Of a stretch of DNA of 64,000 bases, positions 48,601 to 50,975 are shown in pieces (position 1 is the first letter of the stretch; each line of letters starts with the position of its first letter). The position numbers were made by a program, and so were the translations under genes. Location of the stretch: positions 62,001 through 126,000 of the IMG/VR virus record IMGVR_UViG_3300011223_000001. The stretch is one strand, 5' to 3'. Under the pieces are notes generated by a model. The model saw nothing but the letters and a program-made list of their open reading frames with translations, made no database searches and was not told the origin of the DNA. Source of the stretch: an uncultured virus (IMG/VR IMGVR_UViG_3300011223_000001). Lineage: Duplodnaviria; Heunggongvirae; Uroviricota; Caudoviricetes.

Positions 48601-50814
48601 ATGAATAACCTCAAGCAACTCTTTGGCCGTAAAAACGCGGCTGCCAGCTTCTCGGTACAAAACCTGGTGTCCGCACTGGACGGCCAGATCAGCACTGCCG
48701 GCTCCAGCTTCTACGTCAAGCCAGAAATGGCCGAGCGCGTCTCGAACGAAGACTTCAACGCCAGCGACGTGACCGACAGCGTCGAGACCGTGTTCGAAGC
48801 CCTGGGCAAAGTCCTGACCGGCCTGAGCTTCGAGCATTTCAACGCCGAGCGTAAGGCAGATGCGCCGCGTATCGAAGAAAACATGAAGATCGCCGCGACC
48901 ATGGGTCTTTTCGGTGCTTCCAACGAGGCGGCCTACAAGAAGCAGCTGATGGCTTCGACCCGTGCGCTGAACTCCACCGACAAGAACGTGGTCGTCGTCG
49001 CCGGCACCATGTCCGGTGCATTCGGCAGCATCCCAGCCTTCGGCGAAGGCGTCTCGATCGAGAACTACAACGAAAAGTCCAGCCGTGACTTCCGTGTGGT
49101 TACCGCGGCCTACAACCTGACCTCCTCGCGTCAGGATGCGTTCGCCGAAGCCATGTACCGCACCACCCTGGTCAACGCCCAAGAAGGCGGCGCTGTTCAG
49201 ATCGTGCCGTACGTTGTCCTGCTCAAGGATACCTACCACAAGACCACCGGTGCCAAGTGGGATACCCAGGAAATCAACATCGTCGACGCCTACCGTGACC
49301 CATCGGTCCTGGACCAAGGCGCTACCCTGCTGATCCCTGCCAAAACCTCGTCCAGCGCTGCCCACTTCGTGGCCGATGCTGACGTCGGCGCCGAGTCGAA
49401 GACCGACGAGCGTGGCAACAGCTACAACACCGCACCCCTGCGCTTCAATGCCAAGTTCGACCTGATCGGCATTTCCAACCACAACCAGCTGGTCAGCTCG
49501 GGCGTGCTGGAACTGTCCGACACCCTGGACCCTGCCGGTTCGATGAAGAACCTGTACATCAAGGCAGCTGGTAACGGTACCGAAAGCGCGGCCGTGCTGA
49601 AGTTCAAAACCGACAAGATGCAGACCGCCACCTTCGTTCCGAAGCTGATCGGCGACACCCGCAGCATCGCGGTCTCCTTCGAAACCGAGAAGCTGAAAGT
49701 CGGCAACGGCGTTCGCAGCATCGGCGGCGCCACCCTGGAAGCCATCACCGAGCTGGAAGCAGCCAAGCTGACCATCCTGCTGGGTATCAAGGTCGACGGC
49801 ACCATCTCCACCTCGCGTGGTAGCTGCCAGTTCATCGCCGGTGAAGTCACCGTCGAAGGCATCATCGACGAAGACGGCGAGATGTTCGATCACCTGAGCG
49901 GCGCTGGCGCTGCCATCGTGGCCAAGCTGGGTGCTCTGACCGCAATCGGTTACGACCTCGACGCTCGCTTCACCAACACCAACAAACGCAAACGTGGTCA
50001 GCTGGTCCAGACCCGTGCGATGCAGTTCCGCTACCCAATCTGGATGCACAGCCCTGTCACCCTGCCGCTGTCGGTAATGGATGAACAAGGTCCAGGTGAA
50101 GTGGCCAAGGCCCTGACCGTAGCCACCGACATCCGTAACAGCGCCAACGCCGTTACTGCTGCGCTGAACTACGTGGCTCAGCTGAAAGAAGTTGTGGGCG
50201 ACTCCTCGTCCATCGCTCAGTTCGGCGAAGTCGAAGGTGCCCTGAGCATCATGATGCGTCCGACCTACCGTTACCACAAGCTGGTAATCAAAGGCGGTCT
50301 CGACACCATCCGCTCCGGCGATCGCTGGAACGACATCACTCAGCTGCTGCTGAACACCATCAAAGGCCTGCTGTTCCCGGCCTACCGCGACTCCAACATC
50401 GAGTCCGTGTTCCAGGTGGTTTCCGGCAACATCGACGAGAAGCCGAAGTTCCTGATCTGCACCGACCGTGAGATCTCGAACTACCTGATCGAGGTTGGTG
50501 ACAACCGTACGCTGGGCGGCTACCTGAAGTACGACGTCGTGGCTACCAACAACAAGGCCTTCGACGGCAAGATCCTCGTGATCCCAACCCGCGAGAACCC
50601 AGGCGAGAACGACGTTCTGAGCTGGGGTCAGTTCTTCTTCGTACCAACCATCGTCGGCGACATGCCAATCGCGCGCGACGGCCAGACCTCTCGCGAGATC
50701 ACGGCTGTTCCGTTCAACCGTCACGTGAACAACATTCCATTCGCGATCGAAATCGACGTGGAAGGTCTGCGCGAGGCCATGAACAGCTCGCTGTACAACA
50801 CCAAGCTGGGCTGA
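48601..50814 (+). CDS. major capsid protein (phiKZ gp120-like)
   Basis: 737 aa, propeptide ending VSIE|NY, YNL.SSRQD.F.EA.Y.T, TN.NKR.RGQL, P.NRHV.NIP; extreme codon bias. Confidence 0.93.
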   Translation: MNNLKQLFGRKNAAASFSVQNLVSALDGQISTAGSSFYVKPEMAERVSNEDFNASDVTDSVETVFEALGKVLTGLSFEHFNAERKADAPRIEENMKIAATMGLFGASNEAAYKKQLMASTRALNSTDKNVVVVAGTMSGAFGSIPAFGEGVSIENYNEKSSRDFRVVTAAYNLTSSRQDAFAEAMYRTTLVNAQEGGAVQIVPYVVLLKDTYHKTTGAKWDTQEINIVDAYRDPSVLDQGATLLIPAKTSSSAAHFVADADVGAESKTDERGNSYNTAPLRFNAKFDLIGISNHNQLVSSGVLELSDTLDPAGSMKNLYIKAAGNGTESAAVLKFKTDKMQTATFVPKLIGDTRSIAVSFETEKLKVGNGVRSIGGATLEAITELEAAKLTILLGIKVDGTISTSRGSCQFIAGEVTVEGIIDEDGEMFDHLSGAGAAIVAKLGALTAIGYDLDARFTNTNKRKRGQLVQTRAMQFRYPIWMHSPVTLPLSVMDEQGPGEVAKALTVATDIRNSANAVTAALNYVAQLKEVVGDSSSIAQFGEVEGALSIMMRPTYRYHKLVIKGGLDTIRSGDRWNDITQLLLNTIKGLLFPAYRDSNIESVFQVVSGNIDEKPKFLICTDREISNYLIEVGDNRTLGGYLKYDVVATNNKAFDGKILVIPTRENPGENDVLSWGQFFFVPTIVGDMPIARDGQTSREITAVPFNRHVNNIPFAIEIDVEGLREAMNSSLYNTKLG

Positions 50815-50906
50815 ACAGCTGCGGCGCCTTCTTCAAGGCTGCTTGAAGACGGAAGCCTTCGGGTGACTGAAGGGGGCGTGCCGAGGACGCTGTAAAGCGG
50901 CAACAC

Positions 50907-50946
50907 CATAAAACCCCAGGCTGCAATGGCCTGGGGTTTTATGCCG
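50907..50946. terminator. CATA...TATGCCG family hairpin
   Basis: CATAAAACCCCAGGC TGCAATG GCCTGGGGTTTTATG. Confidence 0.8.
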
Positions 50947-50958
50947 TGTTCCAAAAAT

Positions 50959-50975
50959 CTAGGAATATATATCAT
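50959..50975 (+). promoter_or_regulatory. putative early promoter for the nvRNAP gp123-like operon
   Basis: CTAGGAATATATATCAT-N5-TGA. Confidence 0.6.

Follow-up and report, generated by a model that had tools for sequence, protein, structure and literature searches.

A candidate UGA readthrough product of the major capsid gene in nucleus-forming jumbo phages, resembling the C-terminus of a DUF7941 protein

Does the major capsid gene of nucleus-forming jumbo phages end where its stop codon says it does? The question is raised by a stretch of 64,000 nucleotides from an uncultured virus (IMG/VR record IMGVR_UViG_3300011223_000001), referred to here as the window, which covers bases 62001-126000 of a 268,693 bp record and comes from a Noxifer-like nucleus-forming Pseudomonas jumbo phage with a double-stranded DNA (dsDNA) genome. 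The capsid open reading frame (ORF) in the window, which matches PHROG 3231 'major head protein' in a profile search (E 2.5e-225), stops at a TGA codon, and behind this codon the same frame stays open for a further 26 codons (the tail). A preliminary description of the locus had proposed that leaky decoding of the stop lets a minority of capsid subunits display a docking or decoration peptide. Comparison with related phages leads us to consider it probable that UGA readthrough gives a minority of capsid subunits a docking peptide of the DUF7941 type.

Translated in the capsid frame up to the TAA at 50893-50895, the tail reads TAAAPSSRLLEDGSLRVTEGGVPRTL, and a terminator-like hairpin comes next. 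The extension as first outlined is thus borne out by translation. Behind a short linker, it is built from an eight-residue repeat unit, R-x-L-E-D/G-G-x-x. An open frame of this length is unremarkable by itself, since such frames are common in this genome: at least 26 open codons follow the stop in 113 of the 273 ORFs of at least 150 amino acids, and in 40 of the 101 that end in TGA. What exceeds chance is its conservation in relatives. Nor is TGA the default stop of the genome, where the same 273 long ORFs end in TAA (142), TGA (101) or TAG (30).

Conservation of the frame behind the capsid stop codon

Comparison with one close relative, Noxifer, is informative only to a degree. The capsid proteins of the window and of Noxifer share 79-80% amino acid identity, and the DNA of the capsid-end region 84%. 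In Noxifer, the TGA is followed by 28 in-frame codons, and most of the codons that differ from the window alter the amino acid. From these two sequences, a structured 3′ untranslated region seemed the better reading; more distant relatives reversed that.

An IMG/VR contig (L003) whose capsid protein is 77% identical to that of the window carries TGA and 26 in-frame codons. Its tail core differs from that of the window by synonymous changes that include AGC/AGT, CTT/CTA, GAA/GAG, GGG/GGC, GTG/GTA, CCG/CCT, AGG/AGA and AGG/CGG. At each of eight IMG/VR loci whose capsid proteins are 47-48% identical, TGA-A precedes a tail of 26-28 codons with two-and-a-half repeats, and the same arrangement is found in ten named phages: KTN4 (species phiKZ), 201phi2-1, PA1C, RVTF4, BRkr, Viktualia, Phabio, PhiPA3, D6 and PS119XW. 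In all, TGA with a homologous tail of 26-30 codons is present in 21 of 21 motif-carrying capsid genes of the Pseudomonas phiKZ clade, giving 18 unique tails, and a PA7-like contig provides a 22nd case. Alignment of 3′ flanks, which the preliminary description had suggested as a check, therefore turned up what it anticipated, an in-frame tail behind TGA with synonymous variation. The tail is annotated in none of the named phage records. The Viktualia record (L042) does contain a 32-codon coding sequence for a 'hypothetical protein' at 914-1012, lying across the capsid stop and tail in another frame, which is probably a gene-caller artefact due to the hidden tail.

The variation among these tails follows the capsid frame. 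This frame alone carries no stop in any of the 18; each of the others, on either strand, is interrupted in several, and the +1 and +2 frames in most. With the conserved peptide in frame 0 directly behind the stop, a frameshift of the T7 10B type was rejected. Mean column entropy is 0.84, 0.80 and 1.23 at codon positions 1, 2 and 3, respectively. Invariant glycine columns use GGA, GGT, GGG and GGC, while arginine is encoded by AGG, CGG, CGT and CGA, and serine by AGC/AGT or TCA. Summed over all pairs, the ratio of nonsynonymous to synonymous change (pN/pS) is 0.53 in the capsid frame against 0.65-1.20 in the other five, on a codon alignment that was derived from the peptide alignment, and is thus biased towards the tested frame, with a nearly gapless core. 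The comparison indicates that the downstream sequence is conserved as protein, under constraint at the amino acid level. A search with the back-translated tail pattern returned eight loci in 2.9 million viral contigs, all at the 3′ ends of capsid genes, and the motif is therefore specific to that place. The pattern of the window-type tail was found in IMG/VR in Noxifer and L003 only.

If the tail is made, it has to be made by ribosomes that have already translated the capsid gene. The window tail lacks ATG, and its two GTG codons (codons 17 and 22) are not kept in relatives. ATG, GTG and TTG are all absent from 9 of the 21 tails, and where they occur they are not conserved in position. It follows that the peptide could come only from ribosomes arriving out of the capsid gene, in agreement with the earlier statement that the tail has no start of its own. 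The base behind the stop is A in 17 of the 21 (as in the window), G in three, C in one and T in none. Work in Escherichia coli has established that UGA followed by A, C or G is a weaker termination context than UGA followed by U. The locus is thus a coat gene with a weak UGA stop in a poor termination context. The second stops are more mixed, comprising 15 TAA, four TAG and two TGA. No Pfam family was matched by four tail peptides at E values up to 10.

Likeness to gp143-type proteins and the identity of the stop

When the whole genome was translated in six frames and searched for the motif, the repeat turned up at one further site. This is the gene for a protein of 183 residues, the counterpart of phiKZ gp143, which lies outside the window and adjoins the endolysin gene. 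The protein matches PHROG 2935 'virion structural protein' and Pfam DUF7941, the latter over residues 60-160 with 32.9 bits (cutoff 27). When the tail was compared with 1740 six-frame ORFs of at least 60 residues from the whole genome, its best match was the last 24 residues of this gp143-like protein (score 54; next best 36). By this likeness, the tail is a copy of the extreme C-terminus of a gp143-like DUF7941 virion protein. The preliminary description had recognised R-x-x-E-D/G-G as a motif of phage virion proteins, and it can now be placed at the very end of one encoded by the same genome.

Repeat units of the form R-x-h-E-x-G-x-x close 18 of 18 gp143 homologues examined, and L002 and L005, which lack the capsid tail, are no exception. 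One L005 paralogue has the weakest units, and the homologues of 201phi2-1 and Viktualia extend a few residues beyond theirs. The L005 contig encodes two gp143-like paralogues about 3 kb apart (L060, L062), one of which ends in TGA, as do several other gp143 homologues. In an AlphaFold2 monomer model of the gp143-like protein, residues 10-154 are mostly confident, with block means of about 88-92 and dips to 76 and 60, whereas the C-terminal repeats have predicted local distance difference test (pLDDT) values of 54-58, then 38, and no confident fold. The repeats are accordingly flexible in the model. The idea that each lineage shares its own 'flavour' of tail and gp143 was dropped, as tails of the Pseudomonas clade match their own gp143 (mean 46.7) no better than those of other genomes (48.2).

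Goslar shows a comparable arrangement with a different sequence. Behind its capsid gene, TGA-A leads into 28 in-frame codons from which the R-x-L-E-D-G repeat is absent. This tail resembles the C-terminus of Goslar gp23, which is the gp143 counterpart and adjoins the endolysin, with a score of 55 (maximum of 300 shuffles 36), and seven identical residues fall within the matching run. None of the nine further DUF7941 matches in Goslar bears any likeness to the tail. Ralstonia phage FLC4-3B has a 15-codon tail that resembles the C-terminus of a small DUF7941-like ORF (score 36; shuffle maximum 31). For the 16-codon tail of Moabite, the corresponding likeness is weak (29; shuffle 95% level 26, maximum 33). 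Both the FLC4-3B and the Moabite ORF score under the Pfam cutoff for DUF7941.

The identity of the stop codon tracks the tail: genes with a tail end in TGA, and genes without one end in TAA. Among Noxifer-like phages, L002, L008/L009 and L005 lack the tail, and all have TAA. We sampled 17 further chimallivirus lineages beyond the Noxifer-like and Pseudomonas-clade sets. Fourteen end in TAA without a meaningful extension (Xoo-sp14, LucasX, RAY, SEGD1, Yong MS31, RSL2, CR5, ChrisDB, KpZh_1, Eowyn, pEa_SNUABM_37, Proteus phage 10, sm033 and Kwan), and three in TGA with an in-frame extension, namely Goslar (28 codons), Moabite (16) and FLC4-3B (15). TAA is therefore found in 17 of 17 distinct tail-less relatives. 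On a quick maximum-likelihood tree of 29 capsid proteins, which leaves out the seven partial capsid loci L040-L046 and the duplicates L009 and L017, no fewer than six changes of the stop label are required. Stop and tail differ together between well-supported sisters: L003 and L008, Moabite and KpZh_1, and FLC4-3B and RSL2.

LucasX (L029) may represent a third state. Its capsid gene ends in TAA, and the constitutive C-terminus of the capsid protein resembles the C-termini of several small DUF7941 ORFs (score 39; shuffle maximum 29). By this resemblance, some lineages may carry the tag on every subunit. A motif L-D/E-G-[LFI] occurs in the last 10-15 codons of the TAA-ending capsid genes of LucasX (L029), pEa_SNUABM_37 (L096), Proteus phage 10 (L097), Yong MS31 (L048) and sm033 (L098). 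Repeats of the h-x-T-E-x-G type end small DUF7941 proteins in Moabite (L050, 172524 ORF), pEa_SNUABM_37, Proteus phage 10 and LucasX (L110, L107, L118). Their presence in these phages places the origin of the gp143-type repeat before the Pseudomonas clade.

The proposed docking peptide and its alternatives

What might a DUF7941-type end do on a capsid protein? In phiKZ, gp126, gp127 and gp143 are named as DUF7941 proteins in the accessible text of a recent preprint (10.64898/2026.04.21.720040). The same text counts Goslar gp22 (about 580 copies) and gp23 (about 2140 copies) among the most abundant virion proteins, gp23 being the most abundant DUF7941 member, for which a head-to-tail oligomer is predicted. 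Chaining is derived there from AlphaFold 3 predictions, in which one tail segment, the C-terminal 'disordered linker', docks on the globular domain of the next protomer; purified Goslar gp22 was found to form filaments (10.64898/2026.04.21.720040). The authors propose a filament 'cloud' anchored at the peripheral baseplate, where they could attach the DUF7941 proteins of Goslar, about 2500 copies per virion, at six sites only; the capsid protein goes unmentioned as an anchor in the text available (10.64898/2026.04.21.720040). A docking function for the capsid tail, as had been supposed in the preliminary description, fits these predictions. The capsid protein shares with the small DUF7941 proteins (phiKZ gp143, Goslar gp23) the repeat motif and its extreme C-terminal position, the Goslar tail matching gp23. 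It differs from them in having no globular DUF7941 domain, and would be an anchor, an end without an acceptor, rather than a member of the chain.

The position of the capsid C-terminus suits such a role. In phiKZ, according to the portion of the structural report available, the C-terminal arm (residues 728-747) contributes to a six-helix bundle with a pore of about 9 Å in the middle of the hexamer; its reach in pentamers extends to the outer protein gp244 (PMC11297242). The Goslar arms are described, in the part of that work at hand, as a beta-barrel of six strands in the middle of the hexamer. Since the arms meet there, a few capsomers would carry a docking tag at their centre.

We therefore envisage the following sequence of events. 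Most ribosomes would stop at the capsid UGA, while a small fraction would decode it and add 26 residues. The decoder would be a near-cognate host tRNA, most likely tRNA-Trp, acting at a low rate. Each head would then contain a few extended subunits, with the tail emerging at capsomer centres. There, the tail could dock on a DUF7941 globular domain as the tail of a preceding protomer would, and the DUF7941 protein captured by the tag would be a filament anchor or else gp143 itself. We infer that readthrough occurs, and likewise how often it does, which residue is inserted, that extended subunits enter heads and that the tail binds DUF7941.

We speculate further, with confidence a little short of even, that this applies to chimalliviruses including phiKZ, 201phi2-1, PhiPA3 and Goslar. 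In these phages, a leaky UGA would place a few DUF7941 'latch' peptides at capsomer centres, so that the capsid surface too, beyond the baseplate, nucleates the DUF7941 filament cloud or captures gp143. How many anchors there are would depend on the rate of readthrough. Lineages could switch between no tag (TAA), a rare tag (UGA and tail) and, as LucasX suggests, a tag on every subunit.

A mechanism of this kind is already known; the setting and the mimicry of a fibre-protein end-piece are new. In Qbeta (Qubevirus), the coat gene ends in a leaky UGA that yields the minor A1 form, whose 196-residue extension is a folded domain. The capsid tail resembles A1 in its putatively leaky UGA, in lacking a start of its own, in involving a minority of subunits and in the retention of a stop over a sense codon. 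The two are unrelated in sequence and alike at the level of the gene only: Qbeta is a small single-stranded RNA phage with a folded extension, whereas here a dsDNA nucleus-forming jumbo phage would add a flexible peptide of 26-30 residues that copies the end of another virion protein. Among dsDNA phages, ribosomal frameshifting produces T7 10A/10B, and in the Listeria phages A118 and PSA a +1 shift acts on capsid and tail proteins. These cases share with the present one recoding at the 3′ end of a capsid gene to give a minor, C-terminally extended form (putative here), but they slip into another frame, while here the frame behind the stop is the same and a slippery site is absent. T4 Hoc is displayed on the outside of the capsid at the hexamer centre, bound to every hexamer. 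The proposed tag would be displayed at the same place, but as part of the capsid protein and on few subunits, whereas Hoc is a separate protein.

If the proposal is correct, a second product of the main capsid gene has gone unannotated in the best-studied jumbo phages, and it is one that gene-calling programs will never report. DUF7941 proteins that are abundant but have no assigned place, such as those of Goslar, would gain an attachment point. Recoding of a dsDNA phage capsid gene would proceed through stop-codon readthrough and not through frameshifting.

Several points weigh against readthrough to a docking peptide. For all the phages concerned, the product is predicted from comparing sequences. 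No phage suppressor tRNA was found (aragorn called Asn, Tyr, Ser(cga), Lys and one odd case), and readthrough would therefore depend on near-cognate decoding by the host. The odd case is an 88-nt tRNA-like gene with an undefined anticodon ('ac'), outside the window at G000:C1 22009-22096 on the minus strand. The stop is replaced by a sense codon in none of the 13 database protein matches, all of which are 737-741 amino acids long, and fused capsid protein-tail forms were likewise absent among these 13, the 'longer' length class lying outside that search. Three close relatives do without the tail, which is thus dispensable in some settings. Co-variation between tail and own gp143 within the Pseudomonas clade is absent, one antisense frame has a fairly low pN/pS (0.65), and the frame bias of the codon alignment counts here as well.

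The structural and functional literature adds to these points. The phiKZ capsid model, in the portion of the work available, finishes at residue 747, the annotated end, and extra density goes unmentioned in the accessible parts of the phiKZ and Goslar capsid papers. A flexible tail at an occupancy of a few percent would be averaged out of cryo-electron microscopy maps. Readthrough is not mentioned in two phiKZ structure papers or in the Goslar preprint (10.64898/2026.04.21.720040), and no report of capsid-gene readthrough in chimalliviruses was found in the literature searched, subscription-only papers lying outside that search. Further, the available text of one study describes phiKZ gp143 as a cytoplasmic holin regulator that shifts the time of holin triggering in plasmid assays, its first domain being predicted to bind the holin N-terminus (PMC12894885). 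Transposon mutagenesis classes orf143 as non-essential, as far as the accessible part of that report goes (10.1101/2025.11.23.690004). Together, the description as a lysis regulator and the non-essentiality leave a virion role for gp143 unsettled.

These observations on gp143 lead to the alternative that survives best, which we nevertheless regard as unlikely: the tail is translated and functional without being a filament anchor. It might capture or compete with gp143, so that lysis timing follows capsid output, or bind another partner of the gp143 C-terminus. All of the evidence for translation applies equally to this possibility. If the contact with the holin is made through the first domain of gp143, as the available text has it (PMC12894885), the C-terminal repeats are left free for another partner. 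Nothing, however, ties the repeats themselves to lysis, and the abundance of Goslar gp23 (about 2140 copies) and its predicted oligomerisation, in the text accessible, point to a structural role (10.64898/2026.04.21.720040).

It is less probable still, to the point of being doubtful, that the tail is an untranslated relic, either a copied gp143 3′ end that travels with the terminator or an old capsid C-terminus cut off by a nonsense mutation, and kept within a conserved 3′ untranslated region. The whole intergenic region does show 88% column identity between the window and Noxifer, and the KTN4 tail shares 30 of 36 nucleotides with the gp143 3′ end. The missing fused form and the three relatives without a tail would also suit a relic. 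Against this, the frame is kept, stops are avoided and change is concentrated at third positions, and this in six or more genera with capsid proteins of 46-48% identity. The tail always stands behind TGA, while tail-less genes have TAA. Further, at the DNA level the window tail bears little resemblance to the gp143 3′ end (score 12), and recent duplication of that 3′ end was rejected as the source of the window tail on account of this weak nucleotide similarity.

There is only a slim chance that the region acts as an RNA element, a structured 3′ untranslated region that stabilises the capsid mRNA or aids termination, in which the open frame is incidental. The tail alone folds at -36.1 kcal/mol, better than most shuffles (z -2.61; 3 of 200 as good), and together with the terminator at z -4.96. 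The complementary segments named in the preliminary description are all present: TCTTCAAG at 50830-50837 with CTTGAAGA at 50842-50849, CCTTCGG at 50856-50862 with CTGAAGG at 50867-50873, and an outer stem of ACAGC at 50815-50819 with GCTGT at 50889-50893. The outer stem is retained in the minimum-energy fold of the tail alone, where the inner segments form pairs other than those of the two hairpins first drawn. Differences between the window and Noxifer are concentrated in the two hairpin loops, and one stem pair has changed from A-T to G-C, a compensatory exchange. Over the 18 tails, by contrast, RNAalifold finds no conserved structure (-2.8 kcal/mol, six pairs, zero compensatory). In L003, the peptide is retained although seven synonymous changes break hairpin 2, and the complementarity of GAAG and CTTC follows from the codons for L-E-D-G. 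No Rfam 15 family reached its gathering score, the best being microRNA models on the terminator hairpin at 20 bits against a required 80-100, and the hairpin motif does not recur elsewhere in the window. Conservation of the hairpins stops at Noxifer, and it is therefore unlikely that they serve as a general signal for readthrough.

Selenocysteine insertion at the UGA, by host SelB and a downstream selenocysteine insertion sequence (SECIS) hairpin, is very improbable and was rejected. A strictly conserved in-frame UGA flanked by conserved coding sequence is the usual signature of a selenoprotein, and a hairpin lies about 16 nt past the UGA in the window. No hairpin at a fixed distance is conserved over the 18 tails, however; RNAalifold gives no consensus structure, and the loops differ even between the window and Noxifer. 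A cysteine codon replaces the UGA in no relative, where the position holds TGA (with tail) or TAA (without), and a linker has no obvious need for selenium.

Practically negligible, finally, is the chance that an opposite-strand gene yields the third-position signal through wobble on the same nucleotides: its frame is open in the window and L003 and has the second-lowest pN/pS, but it is interrupted in Noxifer, meets stops in 8 of 18 tails (KTN4 alone has three) and would cross the terminator and enter the capsid gene, and this ORF was rejected because relatives have stops in that frame.

Features of the locus and neighbouring signals

The coordinates of the capsid gene, the tail and the associated features are collected in Table 1.

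Table 1. Features of the capsid-gene 3′ region and related genes. Positions refer to the window unless another coordinate system is named.
Feature	Position	Strand	Details and basis
Major capsid protein gene	48601..50811	+	737 codons; ORF list, translation, PHROG 3231, Noxifer identity
UGA stop then A, proposed leaky stop	50812..50814	+	Translation; TGA in 21/21 tail-bearing relatives
In-frame 26-codon tail	50815..50892	+	Linker (codons 1-7), then three repeat units; homologous tails, codon-type conservation
Repeat 1, RLLEDGSL	50836..50859	+	R, E, D/N and G columns invariant or nearly so in 18 tails
Repeat 2, RVTEGGVP	50860..50883	+	Translation and 18-tail alignment
Truncated repeat 3, RTL	50884..50892	+	Relatives finish in R-x-L-E or similar
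Second stop TAA, end of extension	50893..50895	+	Translation
Complementary RNA segments, two possible hairpins inside the tail	50830..50873	+	Lineage-specific; folds; common to Noxifer only
Terminator-like strong hairpin with U-run, then TTTATGCCGT	~50910..50940	+	Fold; kept in relatives
Antisense ORF (rejected)	50975..50721	minus	84 codons, ATG, AGGAG 9 nt upstream
gp143-like gene, 183 residues	G000:C1 135296..135847	minus	Outside the window; adjoins endolysin

A simple terminator scan did not list the hairpin at about 50910-50940. Directly behind it, TTTATGCCGT or a close variant is found (window 50937-50975; L001-L005, L016-L031), and a motif of this type is kept in most of the chimallivirus lineages sampled, including RAY, Eowyn, LucasX, Xoo-sp14, RSL2 and Goslar. 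A box of the TATATATCAT type, conserved among Noxifer-like phages, lies farther downstream. Both motifs may be termination or promoter signals of a phage polymerase. A sigma-70-like promoter match (10/12) is present on the minus strand at window 50998-50971, directed leftwards into the terminator; as the phage presumably transcribes with its own RNA polymerases, this match is probably irrelevant.

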